Shown piece after piece: positions 16,764 to 61,286 of a stretch of 64,000 nucleotides of DNA. Positions within the stretch are counted from its first letter, which is position 1; the number at the start of each line of letters is the position of its first letter. Made by a program: the position numbers and the translations under genes. Below the pieces are notes generated by a model, which saw only the letters and a program-made list of their open reading frames with translations, made no database searches and had not been told where the DNA came from. The DNA is from Candidatus Omnitrophota bacterium (GTDB lineage Bacteria > Omnitrophota > Gorgyraeia > Gygaellales > Profunditerraquicolaceae): positions 33,416 through 97,415 of the forward strand of contig JAQTTQ010000002.1 of the NCBI GenBank assembly GCA_028710685.1, in the 5' to 3' direction.

Positions 16764-17324
16764 ATGTATAAGGACAATACGCTTAAAGATTACCTTGATG
16801 AATTAGCAGCTAAGCTTCCCGTTCCGGGAGGCGGATCTTCGGCTGCGCTTTGTGCCGCTATGGCAGCTGCCTTGGTGAGTATGGTGGTTAATTTTACTTT
16901 GGGAAAGCCAAAATATGAGAAATACGAAAAAAGGCTCAAGGAGGTTATTAATAAATCCGAGTTCTTAAGAAAAGAGTTCTTGCGGCTCGTAGACTTAGAT
17001 GCTATTGCCTATAAGTCCAATAATATGAGGGATGCCGTTAATGTCCCTTTTATGGTCGCCCGGCTTTGCCTGGAGGGTATAAAATTATGCCCTCCCTTGT
17101 TGAAGGAGGGGAATATTAATTTAGTGAGCGATATTGCGGTAGCCGCAGTTTTCTTTGAATCCGCTTTTGTTTCCGCATCTTTTAATGTTAAGATTAACTT
17201 AAAAAGCTTAGGCGATAAGAAATTTTGCGCAGGGGTTAGGAAGGAACTATCCCGCAATAACCGGCAAATAAGTAAAATAAGGATGCAGGTGGAGGAAAGA
17301 GTTGGCGATATTATTAGAGGGTAG
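16764..17324 (+). CDS. Cyclodeaminase/cyclohydrolase-family protein (FTCD_C domain; FchA-like methenyl-THF cyclohydrolase candidate)
   Basis: LPVPGGGSSAALCAAMAAALVSMV is the signature of the FTCD C-terminal all-helical domain. Overlaps folD. Confidence 0.7.
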   Translation: MYKDNTLKDYLDELAAKLPVPGGGSSAALCAAMAAALVSMVVNFTLGKPKYEKYEKRLKEVINKSEFLRKEFLRLVDLDAIAYKSNNMRDAVNVPFMVARLCLEGIKLCPPLLKEGNINLVSDIAVAAVFFESAFVSASFNVKINLKSLGDKKFCAGVRKELSRNNRQISKIRMQVEERVGDIIRG

Positions 17325-18147
17325 GCATATTGCAGAAAAGGTAAAGGAAGATATCAGGCTTAAGGTTTTGTCCTTAAAGATAAGGCCTTCTCTTGCCAGC
17401 TTAATGGTGGGCGATAATTCGGGGGCAGTCAGCTATGTCAAGTCTCAGGCTAAAGCCGCAGAGGAACTGGGGGTAGAATACCAAATACATAAGCTTTCTT
17501 CTTCCTCTTCACAGGAGGATATCATAGGTTTTGTCCGGAAGCTAAACAACGATAAGTCCGTTAACGGAATTATTATCCAGAATCCGCTCCCTGAAAAGAT
17601 AGATTATAAAGCGGTGAGCTTTTCTATGGACCCTGAAAAGGATATTGAGGGAGTACACCCTGCTAATATTGCAGGGATTATTACCGGCAGGGCTAAATTT
17701 ATTCCCTGTACTGCCTATGCGGTAATGGAGTTGATATCTGCCAGCGGGATTAACTTATACGGCAAGGAGGCGGTGATAGTCGGGCATAGCTCAATAGTGG
17801 GTAAGCCTTTAGTGTTTTTATTATTGGATAAGCTTGCTACAGTCACAATATGCCATATAGGCACTAGCCAGGCCGGTAAATTAGAGGATCATATACGCAG
17901 GGCGGAAGTATTAGTTGTTGCCGTAGGGAAGGCAAACCTGATAAAAGGGGAATGGATTAAAGAAGGCGCGGTGGTTATTGATGTGGGGATTAACCGGGTA
18001 AATGGCAAGATTGTCGGGGATGTAGAGTTTTCCGCTGCAGAAAAAAAAGCTGCATTCATTACTCCGGTTCCCGGAGGCGTTGGGCCTTTGACTGTTGCTA
18101 TGTTAATGCGTAATTTAGTTGAGGCAGCCAGGCTGCAGCAGGGTTGA
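17302..18147 (+). CDS. folD: Bifunctional methylene-THF dehydrogenase / methenyl-THF cyclohydrolase FolD
   Basis: 281 aa in the FolD family. Probable TTG start. Confidence 0.9.
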   Translation: MAILLEGRHIAEKVKEDIRLKVLSLKIRPSLASLMVGDNSGAVSYVKSQAKAAEELGVEYQIHKLSSSSSQEDIIGFVRKLNNDKSVNGIIIQNPLPEKIDYKAVSFSMDPEKDIEGVHPANIAGIITGRAKFIPCTAYAVMELISASGINLYGKEAVIVGHSSIVGKPLVFLLLDKLATVTICHIGTSQAGKLEDHIRRAEVLVVAVGKANLIKGEWIKEGAVVIDVGINRVNGKIVGDVEFSAAEKKAAFITPVPGGVGPLTVAMLMRNLVEAARLQQG

Positions 18148-18166
18148 TGGAGTTAATAAATTAAAG

Positions 18167-19036
18167 ATGAATTTTAAAGAAAAATTAGCATCCGATAAAT
18201 TCGTATTGACATCTGAGGTCGGGCCTCCTAAGGGGGTTGAGGTCAAGGGCCTTTTGGAAGAATCTGAGCTTATCCGTAACCGCGTGGATGCGATTAATGT
18301 TACGGACTTGCAAAACTCGGTTATGCGCCTTGGTTCTCTGGCGGTCTCCAGTATTTTAAAGCACCACGGGTTTGAACCTATCTATCAGTTAACCTGCAGG
18401 GATAGAAACCGGTTGGCGCTGCAATCAGACCTTTTGTCCGCAGCGGTGTTAGGCATTGAGAATGTTTTAATCTTAACCGGAGATCATACCACCGCCGGGG
18501 ATCATCCTGAGGCGAAGCCCGTTTTTGACCTGGATTCCGTACAGCTTTTACAGGCAGCTAACAGGCTAAGCCAGGGGTTTGATATAAAGGGAAACAGGCT
18601 AAGCGGTAAAGCGCCGAATTTTTGCCTGGGGGCGGTAGTTAACCCCGGGGCAGATCCCCTAGAGCCTCAGATTATAAAAATGGAGAAGAAAATAGCCGCC
18701 GGTGCGCAGTTTTTTCAGACCCAGGCGGTATATGACATAAAGGTTTTTGAGGATTTCCTTAAAAAAACCAAGCATCTTAAAACTAAGATTATGGCCGGGA
18801 TTGTTTTGCTTAAATCTGCAGGTATGGCTGAATATATGAATCAAAATGTGGCCGGGGTAAACGTACCCGAAGAACTGATTAAGGAGATGGGAGAGGCAAA
18901 AGATAAGGTTAAGCAGTCTGTCAAAATTGCATCAGGGATTATAAAGGAATTAAAGCCTATGTGTGATGGGGTTCATATTATGCCTATTGGTTGGGGCAGG
19001 CTCGTCCCAGAGGTTTTAGATGCCTCAGGGCTATGA
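18167..19036 (+). CDS. metF: Methylenetetrahydrofolate reductase (short MetF type)
   Basis: FVLTSEVGPPKG..INVTD..YQLTCRDRNR..ILTGD motifs of MTHFR. An alternative start lies at 18119. Confidence 0.8.
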   Translation: MNFKEKLASDKFVLTSEVGPPKGVEVKGLLEESELIRNRVDAINVTDLQNSVMRLGSLAVSSILKHHGFEPIYQLTCRDRNRLALQSDLLSAAVLGIENVLILTGDHTTAGDHPEAKPVFDLDSVQLLQAANRLSQGFDIKGNRLSGKAPNFCLGAVVNPGADPLEPQIIKMEKKIAAGAQFFQTQAVYDIKVFEDFLKKTKHLKTKIMAGIVLLKSAGMAEYMNQNVAGVNVPEELIKEMGEAKDKVKQSVKIASGIIKELKPMCDGVHIMPIGWGRLVPEVLDASGL

Positions 19037-19917
19037 TGAATCATATTGTTATTATAGGGGCTTCATCCTCCGGGCATAATCTTGCCTTCAAGATAAGAGA
19101 GAGAAATAAAGGCTGTAAGATAACCTTGATCAGTGAAGAAGGTTATTTAGCTTATGATCATCTGAGGTTGGCTGATTTTATTAGCGGGACAATAAGTGAA
19201 AGGGATGTATTTTTATGTAATGAGGATGATTATTTAAGTCAGGATATAAATTTCCTTAAGAATAAGAAGGTTGCAAGCATTAACATACAGAGGCGCTTGC
19301 TTTATTTCAAGGATAAGGGAAATATCAATTATGATATTCTGATAATTGCCTCCGGCAGGAGCCCGACTATTTTGGATATTCCGGGTGCCCGAAAGGAAGG
19401 GGCCTATCGCCTCTATACTCTGGATGATGCCAAAGAATTTCTTAAACGTTATATCGCCTCTGCGGTTTGTATAGTAGGCAGCAGTAGTTTTGCTTTAAAA
19501 ATAGCAGAGGTGGTCTCGGAGAAATACGGGGTTGAGACAAAAATATTAAGCCCTGCTGTTTTTAACCTTGCGGATCTACCCCCAAAGTCAGAGGTTATTA
19601 ATGATACCTTGGCCGAGGTTATCGGCGAGGGGGAAGTCCAGGCAGTTAAGCTTACAAGCGGCAAGGTGTTGGGAGTATCGGCGGTCTTATTTATGGATAA
19701 TTACAAGGCAAATATTGATTTCCTGAAGAATGCGGATATACAAATTAAAGAGGATTGTATCGCGGTGAATGGGCTTATGGCTACTAATTACGATAATATT
19801 TTTGCCTGCGGCAGTGTTGTGGGCAGGGATAGTTTAGCTGTAAGTTTAATGCTGGCGGATAATATAACTAATAGATTAGGCCAAGAGGATGCCGGAAACA
19901 TTAGCGCAGTTAAGTGA
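19033..19917 (+). CDS. NirB/NADH-oxidase-like two-Rossmann-domain protein with degenerate dinucleotide-binding motifs (pseudo-flavoprotein)
   Basis: Colinear with the FAD and NAD domains of class-II pyridine-nucleotide-disulfide oxidoreductases, but GxGxxG is replaced by IIGASSSG and the second motif by VGSSSFALKIAE. ATGA junction with metF. Confidence 0.5.
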   Translation: MMNHIVIIGASSSGHNLAFKIRERNKGCKITLISEEGYLAYDHLRLADFISGTISERDVFLCNEDDYLSQDINFLKNKKVASINIQRRLLYFKDKGNINYDILIIASGRSPTILDIPGARKEGAYRLYTLDDAKEFLKRYIASAVCIVGSSSFALKIAEVVSEKYGVETKILSPAVFNLADLPPKSEVINDTLAEVIGEGEVQAVKLTSGKVLGVSAVLFMDNYKANIDFLKNADIQIKEDCIAVNGLMATNYDNIFACGSVVGRDSLAVSLMLADNITNRLGQEDAGNISAVK

Positions 19918-22042
19918 AAAGGGAAGAGCCGCGTTATCAAATCTGGCCCGCCAAACTTTAGATAAGGCGTTTTCTCTTTATGGAAAAGAGACTAAGATTT
20001 CTTTCCCCGTAACAAATTATTACCTCCCCCTGATTAATTCCATTTTAAATGTAAAAGTAAAGACTTTAGCCGATTTAGCCTTTATTTTGGATGAAGTTGA
20101 AAAAGATGAATTTTTACCTTTTGCAGAAGGTATATTGAATAAAGGCTTCTCTGTTTTAGCATGTATGGAAGTGCTGGCTGCCTTGGCAGTATTCAATAAA
20201 GGGCATCCGCTGCAAGGAAGCGGCTTTATACCTGATAGTATGCTGCGTTCTCTAGGCCTTAAGCTTATTGACGGGCGGGTATCGGCAATTGCAGTAATTT
20301 TAGGGCCGGCAAAAGACGTTGATTCTGCCGTAAGCCTTATTAGAGAATTTAAGTCTAGAGGGATTGTGAGCCTGCTAGCGGGAAATATTAACGGCAATAC
20401 TATGGAAGGCCAGCTTAAGAGCAGGGGCCTGGAATTAGGGTTAGATAATGGTATTATTGCTTTGGGAAGCGATTACCTGTCTGCAATATATGCGGTGAAT
20501 TTTATAGCCCGCTTTCCCTTAATCTACGGTAATTTCCAGGCAGGGCAGTGTCAGCAGATAATAGATTATATCCGCAAGCGTATTTTGGCCTTTTGCCTTT
20601 TGTTAGGTACTGCTGATGAGGAGGTTATAGCTTATGGCCTGGGGGTTATGGTGTTGGGCATGCCTCTTATAACTGATTTAAGCCTGCCTCAATTGGACAA
20701 AATAGATGCTACTTTTATTGAGGCCTTAGTAGTAGAAAAGGATTATAAAAAGATTCCTTCCCGGTGTATGCTTGCCCGCGGGATTAAGCCAAAGATTATA
20801 AATATGGAGATGCCTTTATCTTACGCTGCGGCCTTTGAGGGGGAGAAGGTAAGGCATGAGGAGCTTCAAGTTGAATTCGGCGGGAAGGCAAATTTGTCTT
20901 TTGAGCTTTTAGTCTCCCAAGAAGAGGCTAAGGTGGAAGACGGCAGGATTGAAGTTTTCGGGCCGGATTTGGATAGCCTTGAGAGAGGGAACAGGTTTTT
21001 GCCTTTAGCCGTAGTGGTAAATGTTTACGGCCGCAAGATGCAAAAAGATTTCGAGTCGATGCTGGAGCGCCAGATTGATCGTTTTATCAATTATGCTTGC
21101 GGGATAATGCATGAAGGCCAAAGGGACAACAGTTTAATCAGGGTAAGTTGCGACGCATTCTCAAGGGGTTTCCGGCTTAAGGACCTGGGCGTTATATTGC
21201 ATGCTATGTTTCATAGGGAGTATAGCGCAATCATTGATAAGGTAGGGGTTAGATTATATACTGATAAGGCGGATGTTGATAGGTTGTTGAGCGGCGCAAG
21301 GGAGATTTTTTCCCTTCGCGATAAGCGTATGCTCGGCCTAACTGATGAAGGCGTAGGCACCTATTATTCTTGCCTGATCTGCCAGTCAATTACCCCTAAC
21401 CATGTTTGTATCCTTACTCCCCAGAGGCCGGGTTTATGCGGTGCTTATTCTTGGCTGGATGCTAAGATCTCTTCTGAGATTGTCCCGACAGGGCCTAACC
21501 AGCCTATATTAAAGGGTAAGCCCTTAGATTTAAGGCTGGGGCAATGGGAGAGTATAAATAAATATGTAAGGGATAAGTCTAATAAAACAATAGAAAAGGT
21601 AAGCATTTATTCAATTGTAGACTCCCCACAGACTTCCAGCGGGTATTTTGAGTGTATTCTTGCGGTGGTGCCTGAGGTAAAAGGGGTAATGGTAGTTAAC
21701 CGGGATTATCCTGGCATGACTCCTTGTGGCATGAGTTTTTCTGACTTATCTGCTTTGTTAAGGACAGGTGCTCAGGTTCCGGGTTTATTAGGCATAAGCA
21801 AGCTTTATATTTTAAGCAGGAAGTTTATTTCAGCGGAAGGCGGGCTTAAGCGCTTAGTTTGGATGCCAAAAGAATTAAAAAAGCTTTTAGGGAAAGAGAT
21901 TGAGCAGGCAGCCCTTGATATAGGAGAATTCGGCCTGCTTGAGGAGATTGCTGATGAGGATGATGCTGTAAGCCTCGGTGAACTTGAAAGTTTCCTTTCG
22001 AAGGCTAATCACCCATCCCTTTGCATGGACCCATTAATTTGA
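19889..22042 (+). CDS. Acetyl-CoA synthase (AcsB/CdhC, CODH/ACS alpha) homolog with a non-canonical A-cluster site
   Basis: 717 aa, colinear with AcsB over the whole length (YYLP.., VYGRKMQ.DFE..LER.I..FINY, LGLTDE.V.T.YSC..CQS..PNHVCI.TP.R.GLCGA.SWLDAK, GMTP.GM.FS.L, VWMPK.LK). The Ni-binding Cys-Gly-Cys is replaced by Ser-Gly-Tyr. Confidence 0.75.
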   Translation: MPETLAQLSEKGRAALSNLARQTLDKAFSLYGKETKISFPVTNYYLPLINSILNVKVKTLADLAFILDEVEKDEFLPFAEGILNKGFSVLACMEVLAALAVFNKGHPLQGSGFIPDSMLRSLGLKLIDGRVSAIAVILGPAKDVDSAVSLIREFKSRGIVSLLAGNINGNTMEGQLKSRGLELGLDNGIIALGSDYLSAIYAVNFIARFPLIYGNFQAGQCQQIIDYIRKRILAFCLLLGTADEEVIAYGLGVMVLGMPLITDLSLPQLDKIDATFIEALVVEKDYKKIPSRCMLARGIKPKIINMEMPLSYAAAFEGEKVRHEELQVEFGGKANLSFELLVSQEEAKVEDGRIEVFGPDLDSLERGNRFLPLAVVVNVYGRKMQKDFESMLERQIDRFINYACGIMHEGQRDNSLIRVSCDAFSRGFRLKDLGVILHAMFHREYSAIIDKVGVRLYTDKADVDRLLSGAREIFSLRDKRMLGLTDEGVGTYYSCLICQSITPNHVCILTPQRPGLCGAYSWLDAKISSEIVPTGPNQPILKGKPLDLRLGQWESINKYVRDKSNKTIEKVSIYSIVDSPQTSSGYFECILAVVPEVKGVMVVNRDYPGMTPCGMSFSDLSALLRTGAQVPGLLGISKLYILSRKFISAEGGLKRLVWMPKELKKLLGKEIEQAALDIGEFGLLEEIADEDDAVSLGELESFLSKANHPSLCMDPLI

Positions 22043-22051
22043 TTTTTTCTC

Positions 22052-22079
22052 TTGACGTCCAACGCTTATACTATATAAT
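22052..22079 (+). promoter_or_regulatory. Sigma70-like promoter (TTGACG-16-TATAAT) upstream of the TPR gene
   Basis: Sequence match to the -35/-10 consensus, located in the 53-nt gap after the acsB-like gene. Confidence 0.4.
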
Positions 22080-54118: not shown

Positions 54119-54579
54119 TGATTAAATTCCTGGTGAGGATATTAAGCACTTTTTTTTATGTGGGGTATCTTCCTTTAATCCCCGGTACATTCGCCAGCCT
54201 TGCAGGCATACTGGTGTATATGCTAATTCAAGGATATGCCCTCAACTATGTTCTGGTCACCTTATTAATTACCATTACCGGTTTTCTAGTTTCAGGCCCC
54301 GCGGAGAAGGCAATGCAAAGGAAGGATCCGCCTTATATTGTAATTGATGAAGTCTCCGGCATACTCTTAAGCCTTTTATTTTTGCCTTATGATATAAGGA
54401 TAATAATTCTTGCCTTTATCCTTTTTCGTCTCCTTGATACGCTTAAGCCATACCCGGCCGGTTCCCTAGAGAAGCTTAAGGCAGGGGCAGGTATTATGGC
54501 GGATGATTTGGTAGCGGGGATTTATACCAATATTATACTTCAGGTATCCCTAAGGGTTATTTCTTTTAAGGCTTCATAG
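54118..54579 (+). CDS. pgpA: Phosphatidylglycerophosphatase A
   Basis: FFYVGYLPLIPGTFASLAG.. in the PgpA family. Lies immediately after pgsA. Confidence 0.85.
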   Translation: MIKFLVRILSTFFYVGYLPLIPGTFASLAGILVYMLIQGYALNYVLVTLLITITGFLVSGPAEKAMQRKDPPYIVIDEVSGILLSLLFLPYDIRIIILAFILFRLLDTLKPYPAGSLEKLKAGAGIMADDLVAGIYTNIILQVSLRVISFKAS

Positions 54580-55112
54580 ACTGCACCGCCAGGGGTTAGC
54601 CTGCTCTTAAAGACTGTAATTCTTTCGGCAGTAAAGCTAATCCCTTCTTTATAAAGATCCTCCCCTAAATTGTTCATTGCCGCCATAAGTTTTTCCTTAT
54701 TCTTTGGTGACCTTGTTCTTCCAAGCGTAATATGGCAAGAGAAGGGCTTTTTTTCTTGGATTATTTCTAAGGCTTCCATTCTTTTCTCTAAGGCATAAGC
54801 TAGGTCTTCAATTTTCTTATCTCCATCCTTAACTCCTACCCAAATTACCTTAGGATGGTCTATATCGGGAAAAGTTCCTATGCCGGATAATCCAATCTTG
54901 AATTTCGAGTGATTATGCGCAGTTTCTTCGGTTACCCTGATTACGTTATTTAGCAGGCCTTCGTTTATCTCTCCTAAAAATCTTAGGGTAAGGTGCATAT
55001 TCTCAGGTAGAACCCATCTTATATCTGCCCCGCATTCTTTCAGGTTTGTTTGTATGCGGGAGAGCTTTTCTTTGATATCCGGCGTTAATGTAATTGCAAT
55101 AAAGGCGCGCAC
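54540..55112 (-). CDS. thpR: RNA 2',3'-cyclic phosphodiesterase (ThpR/LigT, 2H family)
   Basis: Two H-x-T/S-x motifs (HLTLRFLGE, HITLGR). Confidence 0.8.
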   Translation of the reverse strand: MRAFIAITLTPDIKEKLSRIQTNLKECGADIRWVLPENMHLTLRFLGEINEGLLNNVIRVTEETAHNHSKFKIGLSGIGTFPDIDHPKVIWVGVKDGDKKIEDLAYALEKRMEALEIIQEKKPFSCHITLGRTRSPKNKEKLMAAMNNLGEDLYKEGISFTAERITVFKSRLTPGGAVYEALKEITLRDT

Positions 55113-55119
55113 GGTTTTC

Positions 55120-55587
55120 TTATAAAATTGATTTTAGTAATTGCAGAGATTGAAGGGCAGTCTGTTTTCTTACCGAAGAGCGGTCTCCTTTAAAAAGGAA
55201 CCTTTGGCAAAGGTTCCTTTTCCCGTCAGTTACGGCAATAAAGGCCGTGCCCACAGGCTTATTTATTCTTGCTCCGGTTGGCCCGGCAATCCCGGTTACC
55301 GCTAACCCTAAATCAGCCTTAGCTAATTTCCTTACATTTTTTGCCATGAGCAGGGCAGTTTCTTCTGAAACAGCCCCGTTCTTGGATAGGATAGAGGCGG
55401 GTATTTTCAAGATCTTATTTTTTATCTGATTGCTGTATGCGGTTATTCCAAGCAGCAGGTATTTTGAGCTTCCCGGGTTATCGGTGAGAATTTTGGAGAT
55501 AAGCCCCGCGGTAGAGGATTCGGCGATAGCAAGGGTTTTGTTTTCTTTAATCAGGGCTTTATGTAAATATTTTGTAAGGTTTTGCAT
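55120..55587 (-). CDS. CinA C-terminal-domain protein (nicotinamide-nucleotide amidohydrolase PncC-like)
   Basis: LAIAESSTAGLISKILTDNPGSS.. in the CinA_C family; stand-alone 155 aa. Confidence 0.8.
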   Translation of the reverse strand: MQNLTKYLHKALIKENKTLAIAESSTAGLISKILTDNPGSSKYLLLGITAYSNQIKNKILKIPASILSKNGAVSEETALLMAKNVRKLAKADLGLAVTGIAGPTGARINKPVGTAFIAVTDGKRNLCQRFLFKGDRSSVRKQTALQSLQLLKSIL

Positions 55588-55655: not shown

Positions 55656-55775
55656 ATCAATCTTCAGGGCAGGGTGTAATCCCCGACCGGCGGTTAAGTC
55701 CGCGAGCCTTAAAATAAGGCATGAACCGGTTAGATTCCGGTACCGATGGTACAGTCCAGATAGAAGAAGATAAGT
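55656..55775 (+). ncRNA. FMN riboswitch (RFN element) aptamer
   Basis: CTTCAGGGCAGGGTGTAATCCCCGACCGGCGGTTAAGTCCGCGAGCC..GGTACAGTCCAGATAGAAGAAGAT matches the conserved RFN core (GGGCAGGGUGAAAUUCCCGACCGGCGGUA..AGCCCGCGAGC..CAGUCCGGAUG.AAGAAGAU), and it sits upstream of ribBA. Confidence 0.85.
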
Positions 55776-55810: not shown

Positions 55811-55823
55811 ATTGGAGTCAGAT

Positions 55824-57035
55824 ATGCTTAATACGATACCGGAAATTATTGAAGAATTAAAAAGGGGAAGAATGGTGATCGTCGTTGACGATGAGAGCCG
55901 CGAGAACGAAGGCGATCTGGTCATGCCCGCTTCCTTTGTAAGGGCTGAAGATATCAATTTTATGTCCAAGTTTGGCCGGGGGCTTATCTGTGTACCAATG
56001 GAGGAATCCAGGCTCAGCTTTTTAGGGCTTAGGCCTATGTTAGGCGAGGCTTCCTCTTTAGGGTCAAAAGACCCTTTTTCCACCGCCTGGGTAATATCAA
56101 CAGATGCGGCCTTAGGCGTAACTACGGGTATATCTGCCCATGACCGTTCGCGTACAATCGAAGTCTTAATCAACTCCAGGTCAAGGCCTGAAGATTTAAT
56201 CCGCCCGGGCCATATCTTCCCTTTACGTGCCCGCGAAGGAGGAATTTTGGTGCGCGCCGGACATACCGAAGCATCGGTGGACCTTATGAAATTAAGTGGC
56301 CTGTATCCGGCAGCGGTTATTTGTGAGATTATGAATGATGACGGAAGCATGAGCCGTATGCCGCAGCTTCTTGATTTTGCAAAGAAGCATAATTTAAGAA
56401 TTTGTTCTATTGCCAATCTTATCGAATACCGCCGTAAGTCGGAGAAATTGGTAGAGAGGTTAACCGAGACTATCCTGCCTACTGAATTCGGCAAGTTTAA
56501 TCTTATCCTTTTTCGCGACCTTACCAATGGCAAGGTCCACACAGTGCTTACTGCCGGGAATTGGAAAGAAGAGCCGGTTTTAGTGCGCGTGCATTCGGAG
56601 TGTTTAACCGGAGATGTTTTCGGCTCATTGCGCTGTGATTGCGGCAAGCAATTGTCCAAGGCTATGCAGGCTATATCTGCCGAGGGCAAAGGCGCTATAC
56701 TCTATATGAACCAGGAGGGCAGGGGGATAGGCCTTGTAGAAAAGATTAAGGCCTATAAGCTTCAGGATAAAGGGTTGGATACGGTTGAGGCCAATGAGGC
56801 CTTGGGCCACAAGGCTGATTTAAGAGATTACGGCATAGGCGCTCAGATCTTGGTGGATTTAGGAATAAAGAATATCCGGCTTTTTACCAATAATCCGCGT
56901 AAGATCATAGGCCTGGAAGGTTATGGGCTCAGGGTTGTTGAGAGGGTTTCTCTAGAGATCAAGCATAACCCCTTGAATTATAAATACCTTAAGACCAAGA
57001 AAGAAAAGCTTGGCCATAATTTAAATATAGATTAA
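55824..57035 (+). CDS. ribBA: Bifunctional 3,4-dihydroxy-2-butanone-4-phosphate synthase / GTP cyclohydrolase II
   Basis: DHBP synthase N-half (RENEGDLV) and GTP cyclohydrolase II C-half (CDCG, zinc cysteines). Start placed at the ATG at 55824, after GGAG. Confidence 0.9.
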
Positions 57036-60522: not shown

Positions 60523-61218
60523 ATGAAATTAGGAGAAAAGGATAAATCAAGAGAGTTGAGGCTGCAGGGATATTCAATGAAACAAATAGCAGGCTTATTA
60601 GGTGTATCTAAGGGCTCTGTGAGCAACTGGGTAAGAGATATACCCTTACCCCTTGAAGCAGCGATTAATATCGACAATCAATACTTAATTGGCAGGGAGA
60701 AGGCGCGGGTAACCAGGCTTAACAATATCACTTCTAGGAATAATGAAATATTTCGCATATGCAAAGAAGAGATAGTGCCATTTTCGATAAGAGATCTTTG
60801 GATGGCAGGGTTAATGATTTACGCGGGTGAAGGAAATAAATCTTCCGTTGTGTCGAATCAACATGTTGAAGTTGCTAATTCTGACCCTAACATTCTTAGG
60901 ATTTTTATTAAATTTCTTGTGGAAATTTGTCTTATTTCAAAAGGAAATATTATAATCCGTTTGATTTTATATAAGGATATCAATATAGAAGAGGCGTATA
61001 GATATTGGTCAGCAGAACTTAATATACCCCGGGCGCAATTCCGTAAAGAATTTATAAAACCGAGCTACAAAGATTCTCCATACCGACATCTTCGTCGTTC
61101 CTGCTATGGTACGGCTCACGTATGTTTATACGATATAAAAATCTATCGTAGAATAATGGGTTGGTTAAAAGCTGTATATGAGAATTTAATATTAGATGAA
61201 TTGATTATCGGGAAGTAG
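60523..61218 (+). CDS. HTH-domain plus LAGLIDADG-fold (homing-endonuclease-like) protein; AT-rich and probably mobile
   Basis: N-terminal HTH (LRLQGYSMKQIAGLLGVSKGSVSNWV), then DLWMAGLMIYAGEGNKSS (LAGLIDADG-type helix with GEG) and ..ANSDPNILRIFIKFL..KGNIII. Own TTGCCA-17-TATACT promoter 6 nt before the ATG. The stop codon lies inside tRNA-Pro. Confidence 0.55.
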   Translation: MKLGEKDKSRELRLQGYSMKQIAGLLGVSKGSVSNWVRDIPLPLEAAINIDNQYLIGREKARVTRLNNITSRNNEIFRICKEEIVPFSIRDLWMAGLMIYAGEGNKSSVVSNQHVEVANSDPNILRIFIKFLVEICLISKGNIIIRLILYKDINIEEAYRYWSAELNIPRAQFRKEFIKPSYKDSPYRHLRRSCYGTAHVCLYDIKIYRRIMGWLKAVYENLILDELIIGK

Positions 61219-61286
61219 CGTAGTTTGGCTAGCGCGCGACGTTCGGGACGTCGAGGTCGTGGGTTCGAATCCCACCTTCCCGACCA
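61209..61286 (+). tRNA. tRNA-Pro (anticodon CGG), CCA encoded
   Basis: Cloverleaf folded by hand: acceptor CGGGAAG/CTTCCCG, D-arm GCGT/GCGC, anticodon stem CGACG/CGTCG with loop TTCGGGA, T-arm GTGGG-TTCGAAT-CCCAC, discriminator A, then CCA. Confidence 0.85.

Follow-up and report, generated by a model that had tools for sequence, protein, structure and literature searches.

The locus described here occupies positions 16764-22042 of a 64-kb stretch of DNA, hereafter the window, from an Omnitrophota metagenome-assembled genome (MAG), and consists of five plus-strand open reading frames (ORFs) that combine folate enzymes from the Wood-Ljungdahl pathway (WLP) with a homolog of acetyl-CoA synthase (ACS). 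The ORF list together with Pfam and NCBIfam identification places all five where a preliminary description of the DNA had put them and agrees with its gene set of FchA-like protein, FolD, MetF, flavoprotein and AcsB-like protein. The first gene is fchA-like (16764..17324; 186 aa; FTCD_C family, PF04961 with 161.8 bits) and codes for a putative methenyl-tetrahydrofolate (THF) cyclohydrolase. It is followed by folD (17302..18147; 281 aa; PF00763 and PF02882), which has a TTG start preceded by GGAGG at 17291-17295 with a 6-nt spacer, and by metF for methylene-THF reductase (18167..19036; 289 aa from the ATG at 18167; PF02219, 116 bits). The last two are X (19033..19917; 294 aa), a pseudo-FAD-dependent NAD(P) oxidoreductase (pseudo-FNOR) with a truncated Pyr_redox_2 domain (PF07992), and the acsB-like gene (19889..22042; 717 aa; PF18537, PF03598 and PF19436).

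The AcsB-like protein has the complete three-domain architecture of its family, scores 809 bits against NF040764 (cutoff 800) and matches the ACS of C. hydrogenoformans (8cjb_B) with 575 bits and E = 1.7e-171. Its [4Fe-4S] cysteine motif, C495-x2-C498-x8-C507-x9-C517 in the alignment (21371..21439, plus strand), was found to be intact, as are the four cubane cysteines in 14/14 variants of the window's clade. At the position of the A-cluster Cys-Gly-Cys (CGC), TSCGCFE of solved ACS structures is replaced by TSSGYFE in the window, where Ser584-Gly585-Tyr586 (SGY) is encoded by AGC GGG TAT at 21638..21646 of the plus strand. The SGY-type AcsB seen earlier is therefore upheld by alignment to solved ACS, and it recurs as SGY or Gly-Gly-Tyr (GGY) in all 14 clade variants (12 full length, two partial), which come from independent NCBI, JGI, ENA and Logan assemblies. 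The codons at the site are ordinary sense codons (AGC or GGA, GGG, TAT), so that, together with the independent assemblies, the SGY/GGY state can be regarded as real and fixed. Recoding and sequencing error were both considered as its source and rejected because of the sense codons and the recurrence in 14 variants. Among the best 120 homologs, of which all with a source name are Omnitrophota, 116 carry CGC, whereas SGY and GGY are limited to the window's clade and Cys-Gly-Phe (CGF) is found in one short contig. This 2.7-kb contig (L015:114-2219) encodes an AcsB, P0065, in which the F512 position is also changed, to Ser; P0065 sits on a long branch beside the SGY clade, perhaps as an intermediate, perhaps as a state reached in parallel.

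The changes in the clade extend beyond the nickel ligands. In each of the three main members of the clade, 43 of the 345 positions with at least 97% conservation among canonical relatives are altered, and 87% of the canonically invariant positions are kept. The hydrophobic CO alcove of the M. thermoacetica ACS consists of G145, I146, V149, F229 and F512 (PMC11321310). When these residues were mapped through the C. hydrogenoformans alignment, and not directly onto the Moorella sequence, the clade was found to have Ile501 at the position of F512 and Ala133 at the position equivalent to G145; a Tyr at the F229-equivalent position is common to all Omnitrophota. The conserved CoA-associated Trp416 is a Leu in the clade, and the Gly-rich LAGxVGGG loop near the A-cluster is changed as well. 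In the established structural chemistry of ACS, both the proximal and the distal nickel of the A-cluster are held by the Cys-Gly-Cys thiolates, and because both ions depend on these missing thiolates the window's AcsB-like protein is predicted to be unable to synthesise or cleave acetyl-CoA.

The protein X had been called an inactive-looking flavoprotein, which its motifs bear out. Its AlphaFold2 (AF2) model has a pLDDT of 92.6 and Foldseek places it near TodA, putidaredoxin reductase and CoADR (TMq 0.85) over the FAD and NAD domains. The C-terminal domain is absent, as in every copy of X examined, and there is no match to PF18267 or PF00070. The position of the NAD motif GxGxxG reads GSSSFA (nt 19477-19494) and that of the GD motif, which binds the FAD ribityl chain, reads CGS (nt 19807-19818). 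The Asp of the GD motif is kept in 0/77 members of the X family, and both motifs are lost in 8/8 X-type genes, none of which adjoins cooS or cooF. Full-length FNORs, on the other hand, carry GGGL(I/V)GL in 12/12 cases (GGGCVGL in L046), and GD is present in all FNOR sequences, whether full-length or partial (16/16). Functional FNORs normally have the same N-terminal G-x-S-x-x-G as X, and FAD binding by X is therefore perhaps possible. X has 78 close homologs (E <= 1e-53), followed by a score gap to ferredoxin reductases of 400 aa that are 25% identical. The ratio of nonsynonymous to synonymous substitution rates (dN/dS) of X is 0.08-0.12. Taken by its motifs and its place in the locus, X is apparently a pseudo-FNOR, that is, the dead remnant of a flavoprotein linked to carbon monoxide dehydrogenase (CODH), kept by selection.

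The FNOR genes of loci L030-L032 and the X genes of L022-L026, L003, L097 and the window occupy an identical position directly upstream of acsB. In two proteins of 1029 aa (P0036 and P0089) X is fused to AcsB, and in most Omnitrophota AcsBs (~850 aa) all that survives of X is its central NAD-type sub-domain, an N-terminal extension of 110-140 aa that is itself under purifying selection (dN/dS 0.10). As X is either fused to the N-terminus of AcsB or shrunk to an extension of it, it belongs with AcsB rather than with MetF. The unconventional electron transfer to MetF that had been suggested for the locus is thus not supported: X holds the position of the FNOR and fuses to AcsB, and MetF is fully conserved in L005 and L014, lineages without any X FAD domain. 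The fusions and the persistence of X predict a physical contact between FNOR and ACS in complete systems; no description of such a contact was met in the literature searched. In clostridial Wood-Ljungdahl clusters it is lpdA that follows metF. An LpdA-like identity of X was considered and rejected, as its NCBIfam matches to LpdA are far weaker than those to CoADR, NirB and ferredoxin reductases and an FNOR origin explains its position.

The best matches are Omnitrophota MAG proteins, and the same synteny was observed in L001, L002, L003, L005, L006, L014 and L097, which share with the window the housekeeping block tgt-trmD-rplS-rnhB-yraN ... TPR-polA-glgA-coaE-rho. The linkage of the folate genes with acsB is conserved in all relatives, so that the neighbourhood comparison proposed at the outset brought up no relative in which it is absent. 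Fuller loci were found by scanning metagenomes and then applying local phmmer and Pfam searches. Four of these (L030, L031, L032 and L042) contain cooS (Prismane, 578-600 bits), cooF for a 4Fe-4S (Fer4) dicluster protein and an FNOR gene directly upstream of acsB. The FNORs of the cooS loci have 422-450 aa with Pyr_redox_2, Pyr_redox and Rubredoxin_C domains, and both PF18267 and PF00070 are present in those of L030 and L042. The first three loci share the rnhB-yraN ... TPR-polA block with the window, and more distant ones such as L042 add acsC downstream. Most of the loci with a fuller arrangement are without fhs at its position; fhs was found directly upstream of fchA in L006 and L024-L026, and MetV (PF12225) among the loci only in L096.

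These arrangements form a graded series that can be read as a stepwise reduction. The starting point would be fhs-fchA-folD-metF-cooS-cooF-FNOR-acsB(-acsC), and the same genes would next be found within the Omnitrophota housekeeping block. Thereafter cooS and cooF would have been deleted together with a shortening of the FNOR to X (~290 aa), which lost its C-terminal domain, NAD(P)H site and GD motif. In some lineages X would then have been fused to AcsB or shrunk to a stub. The window's clade would have kept the architecture with a shortened, separate X and lost the nickel ligands (Cys-Gly-Cys to Ser/Gly-Gly-Tyr), and it is in this clade only that the alcove residues, the CoA-associated Trp and the Gly-rich loop appear to have changed along with them.

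The loss of the ligands is accompanied by a change in evolutionary rate. The acsB-like gene has a dN/dS of 0.17-0.23 within the clade (bootstrap 95% confidence interval 0.125-0.317), whereas the AcsB core of a canonical pair at similar dS has 0.063 (0.045-0.090). In the A-cluster domain the values are 0.16-0.22 in the clade against 0.040 in the canonical pair, a 4-5-fold relaxation; polA, included as a comparison gene, has a dN/dS of 0.11. A three-taxon comparison of the window with L097 (the canonical relative nearest to it) and L003 gave AcsB identities of 65, 62 and 82%, with a window branch ~3.7x that of L097, while tgt, metF and other housekeeping genes evolve at roughly equal rates in the three. 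Pairwise dS in the clade reaches ~0.68 and the ORFs of 715-717 aa are still intact in the 12 full-length variants. The relaxation of constraint is thus specific to AcsB, yet purifying selection goes on. The acsB-like gene is very probably not a degraded pseudogene in this clade; decay to a pseudogene elsewhere had been named beforehand as a finding that would undo the proposal.

The three folate enzymes are under purifying selection, with dN/dS values that together span 0.05-0.22. All three miss the NCBIfam equivalog cutoffs and their exact function is therefore assigned only at the family level; the FchA-like protein, for example, scores 147.8 against NF045657 (FchA), below the cutoff of 275. 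The position of the fchA-like gene is constant in all related loci and its dN/dS is 0.18, and metF has a dN/dS of 0.045-0.11 with no acceleration of its rate in the window's lineage. The window FolD has Gln49 (nt 17446-17448) at the position of the conserved Lys of bifunctional FolDs, as seen in an alignment of its YVKSQAK with YVKSKAK of the C. jejuni FolD (3p2o). This Lys is essential for cyclohydrolase activity (K54 in E. coli, K56 in human). Most operon FolDs with a readable motif carry YVKSQxK, including those of the complete-operon loci L031 and L042. The window FolD is probably a dehydrogenase-only enzyme, and the lack of the cyclohydrolase Lys would explain the presence of a separate FchA. 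In the lineage of P0005, a gene for an NYN-domain protein lies between folD and metF (L003:7474-8085, also in L004) and interrupts the otherwise tight operon.

The five cistrons had been described as overlapping one another, and at three junctions this can be read directly in the sequence: fchA and folD overlap by 23 nt, metF and X meet at ATGA, and X and the acsB-like gene overlap by 29 nt. The three overlaps have identical lengths in L001, L002 and L003, the AcsBs of which are 88, 80 and 62% identical to that of the window. The folD/metF junction is different, with probably no overlap and a 19-nt gap. A start of metF at the ATG at 18167 is favoured by the Pfam alignment, in which the MTHFR profile aligns with the long metF ORF only from its residue 20 onwards, and by the gene calls in relatives, which have 289 aa; the alternative TTG at 18119 is unlikely. 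Counted from longest-ORF starts, 29 of the 56 adjacent plus-strand gene pairs in the window overlap and 42/56 are at most 20 nt apart, and these close or overlapping pairs include the functionally unrelated trpS/scpA, glgA/coaE and coaE/rho. The overlaps within the operon are for this reason of little weight, and translational coupling, which had been taken as the sign of a module, loses its force here. The fchA gene starts 4 nt after yraN and the transcription unit may therefore begin further upstream. Its possible end is suggested by a promoter-like TTGACG-16-TATAAT (11/12 matches to the consensus, a consensus match only) at 22052..22079 on the plus strand, between the acsB stop and the TPR gene; a promoter and terminator scan of the region gave no more sites than the shuffled expectation, and this site is a weak hint. 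An Rfam search found no RNA element within or near the operon.

In the rest of the window, the ORFs of at least ~100-150 aa, nearly all of which were identified through Pfam or NCBIfam and six of which were named by eye from their translations, included no Fhs, CODH, corrinoid iron-sulfur protein (CFeSP), AcsE, MetV, Hdr or Rnf. The observation that formate-THF ligase, CODH, CFeSP and the methyltransferase are not beside the operon, and that it has no MetV partner, is accordingly confirmed at the scale of 64 kb. The other larger ORFs are housekeeping genes. A complete riboflavin set (ribD, ribE, ribBA and ribH) is found at 55.8-60.5 kb, with an FMN riboswitch (55656-55775; 106 bits) upstream of ribBA (55812-57035). 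Nearly all genes in the window (1-64000) are on the plus strand and the GC skew is positive throughout (0.13-0.30), with a single dip (0.03, 54-56 kb) that corresponds to two minus-strand genes, a LigT-like phosphoesterase and cinA (54540-55587). An ORF of 231 aa (60523-61218) without a Pfam match at E < 1e-8 lies just upstream of a tRNA gene (61209-61283).

Variation at the nickel site was also observed in the wider ACS family. Among 116 representatives of 50%-identity clusters that cover the site, 59 have CGC, 13 have both Cys with another middle residue and 44 are without at least one nickel Cys, while the cubane cysteines are kept in nearly all; because rare divergent sequences and fragments count for too much in such lists, the proportions are not frequencies in nature. 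The variants among P0252-P0399 include CSC, CRC, CGR, CGD, SSL, SAC and CYR, many of them in proteins of ~400-430 aa, the size of CdhC. A separate case is an AcsB with Cys-Ser-Tyr (CSY; P0253, L096:7153-9312) from a different Omnitrophota-like lineage, in which the change from Cys to Tyr is independent; it is known from a single contig, where a sequencing error is possible, and the gene order of this locus is trmD-rplS-rnhB-yraN-fchA-folD-metV-metF-acsB-acsC. On account of the 44 representatives and the CSY case, the loss of the nickel site appears to be recurrent in the ACS fold. Literature searches found no description of ACS homologs without Cys-Gly-Cys.

The AcsB genes of two Omnitrophota loci (L028:6986-11170 and L010:6844-10362) each contain, in the A-cluster domain, an intein that includes a LAGLIDADG homing endonuclease (PF14890 and PF14528), one near the cubane CxxC and the other near Cys-Gly-Cys. 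Further AcsBs of 1172-1254 aa share these intein domains, and some of them are annotated merely as 'LAGLIDADG family homing endonuclease'.

Taken together, the graded series of loci, the motif losses, the acceleration specific to AcsB and the purifying selection on both X and the AcsB-like protein argue that the locus is probably the end product of the reductive evolution of a classical Wood-Ljungdahl operon, a relic and not a new C1 module. It belongs to a streamlined Omnitrophota lineage with small genomes that occurs in metagenomes of the anaerobic-digester type. FchA, FolD and MetF would continue to serve biosynthesis by interconverting formyl-, methenyl-, methylene- and methyl-THF, and X and the AcsB-like protein would persist as a non-catalytic pair. 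The cofactor sites left in the pair would be the [4Fe-4S] cubane, clearly, and perhaps FAD in X, and our best guess, held with low confidence, is a residual structural role or one as redox partner or electron carrier.

Several points weigh against the reading as a relic. The AcsB-like protein and X still do something, because their dN/dS is far below 1 and the ORFs are intact across a dS of ~0.68, and the relic reading does not say what this is. The polarity of the series follows from parsimony and synteny and not from a rooted tree of the species. For a stub-bearing AcsB (P0048) the AF2 model is of low confidence, with a pTM of 0.57 and an N-terminal pLDDT of 65-84, which leaves the fusions as the only pointer to a physical contact between X and AcsB. 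The loss of ACS activity is deduced from the loss of ligands, and an unusual metal site built from Cys498, Tyr586 and backbone amides is conceivable and formally possible. Finally, a second canonical acsB, or genes for CFeSP, AcsE or CODH, outside the 64-kb window would change the picture.

A further reading, which we regard as possible but rather doubtful, is that X and the nickel-less AcsB, both once enzymes, now work together as a conserved complex with a new job, and that they belong to a large and so far unrecognised class of proteins with the ACS fold that have the cubane and no nickel site. Such a job might be to act in folate C1 metabolism as a redox or regulatory partner with [4Fe-4S] and FAD.

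The proposal from which this work started, that the five genes are a dedicated new C1 module in which the SGY-type AcsB performs novel chemistry and X exchanges electrons with a MetF that has no MetV, is in our judgement unlikely. It draws on the linkage conserved in all relatives, the purifying selection on X and the AcsB-like protein, the kept [4Fe-4S] site and the recurrence of nickel-site variants in ACS homologs, which hints at non-ACS functions of the scaffold. However, the same linkage is seen in loci with a CGC-type ACS and with unrelated housekeeping neighbours, overlaps are common across the gene pairs of the window, and X derives from the FNOR of cooS-cooF-FNOR-acsB, has AcsB and not MetF as its fusion partner and has had its NAD site destroyed. 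MetF is unchanged where the X FAD domain is missing, and the constraint on the A-cluster domain is relaxed, not intensified. The loss of the ACS nickel ligands in the clade argues for a C1 reaction lost rather than gained. The claim of a module for an undescribed C1 transaction is therefore set aside in favour of a stepwise-reduced Wood-Ljungdahl operon, and a partial WLP in Omnitrophota has already been published, as passages of PMC10066038 describe.

A still less probable explanation is that the acsB-like gene, and X with it, is a functionless pseudogene heading for deletion. This would fit the missing catalytic ligands, an AcsB branch 3-4x longer than in sister lineages and a dN/dS ~3x that of canonical ACS (4-5x in the A-cluster domain). 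It is largely refuted by the 715-717-aa ORFs, intact in 12 full-length variants of independent assemblies, and by a dN/dS that stays at 0.17-0.23 (upper bound 0.32 by bootstrap) at a dS of ~0.68; the retention of all four cluster Cys and of 87% of the positions that are invariant in canonical sequences, and the low dN/dS of X (0.08-0.12), speak against it as well. Least probable of all is that the AcsB-like protein is still an ACS or decarbonylase with a remodelled metal site that uses CFeSP and AcsE encoded elsewhere, since, although it passes the NCBIfam ACS cutoff with three domains and cubane ligands intact and ACS without CODH has been proposed as functional in passages on Omnitrophota (PMC10066038) and Dehalococcoides (PMC7005905), the two thiolates on which the proximal and distal nickel depend are missing, the equivalents of the alcove Phe and Gly are Ile and Ala, Trp416 and the GGG loop are changed and the A-cluster domain is 4-5-fold relaxed relative to canonical relatives.

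If the relic reading is right, the locus would be a stepwise record of the dismantling of the WLP in bacteria with small genomes, in which CODH and CooF went first, the flavoprotein next, by decay to a stub still joined to ACS, and the nickel site of ACS last, with selection maintaining the protein even so. Automated annotation labels the pair 'acetyl-CoA synthase' and 'FAD-dependent oxidoreductase', and reconstructions based on gene presence might for this reason credit the clade with acetogenesis or CO use too readily. The frequent nickel-site variants suggest that the ACS fold may have uncharacterised non-ACS roles. The locus is accordingly best placed as a degenerate variant of a known system, with relevance to the evolution of ACS, to pseudoenzymes and to the over-annotation of acetogenesis in Omnitrophota.

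Compared with known systems, the AcsB-like protein shares its three domains, its length and its cubane cysteines with bacterial AcsB (the alpha subunit of the M. thermoacetica CODH/ACS and the monomeric ACS of C. hydrogenoformans). It differs in having Ser-Gly-Tyr for Cys-Gly-Cys, Ile and Ala at the positions equivalent to Phe512 and Gly145 and changes at 43 otherwise invariant positions, in the absence of a CODH or CFeSP gene nearby and in a dN/dS ~3x that of canonical relatives. X resembles the FNOR of the CODH-CooF-FNOR unit, for which Whitham 2015 and Geelhoed 2016 are said to be the cited sources, in its FAD and NAD fold, its position upstream of acsB and its G-x-S-x-x-G motif. It is unlike that FNOR in having no adjoining cooS or cooF and no Rubredoxin_C/Reductase_C-type domain, and in the loss of the NAD GxGxxG and GD motifs. 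The unit, a known, putative one, combines a Ni-CODH with CooF, a ferredoxin-like protein, and with an FAD-dependent NAD(P) oxidoreductase, according to passages of PMC6344411. With the methyl-branch cluster of acetogens, fhs-fchA-folD-metV-metF, the window shares the fchA-folD-metF order and the pairing of FchA with a Lys-less FolD, but it has neither fhs nor metV.

The closest parallel is the partial WLP of Omnitrophota without Fdh and AcsA/CooS (CooS/F) that is described in passages of Seymour et al. 2023 (PMC10066038). Going by these passages, the window agrees with it in phylum and gene set, being without CODH and having kept ACS and the folate enzymes; the passages searched of the same paper hold no mention of a pseudo-FNOR or of a nickel-less ACS. 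Like the incomplete WLP of Dehalococcoides mccartyi, the window keeps ACS and folate enzymes without CODH. In both of these systems the ACS is assumed to be functional, whereas in the window its nickel ligands are gone.

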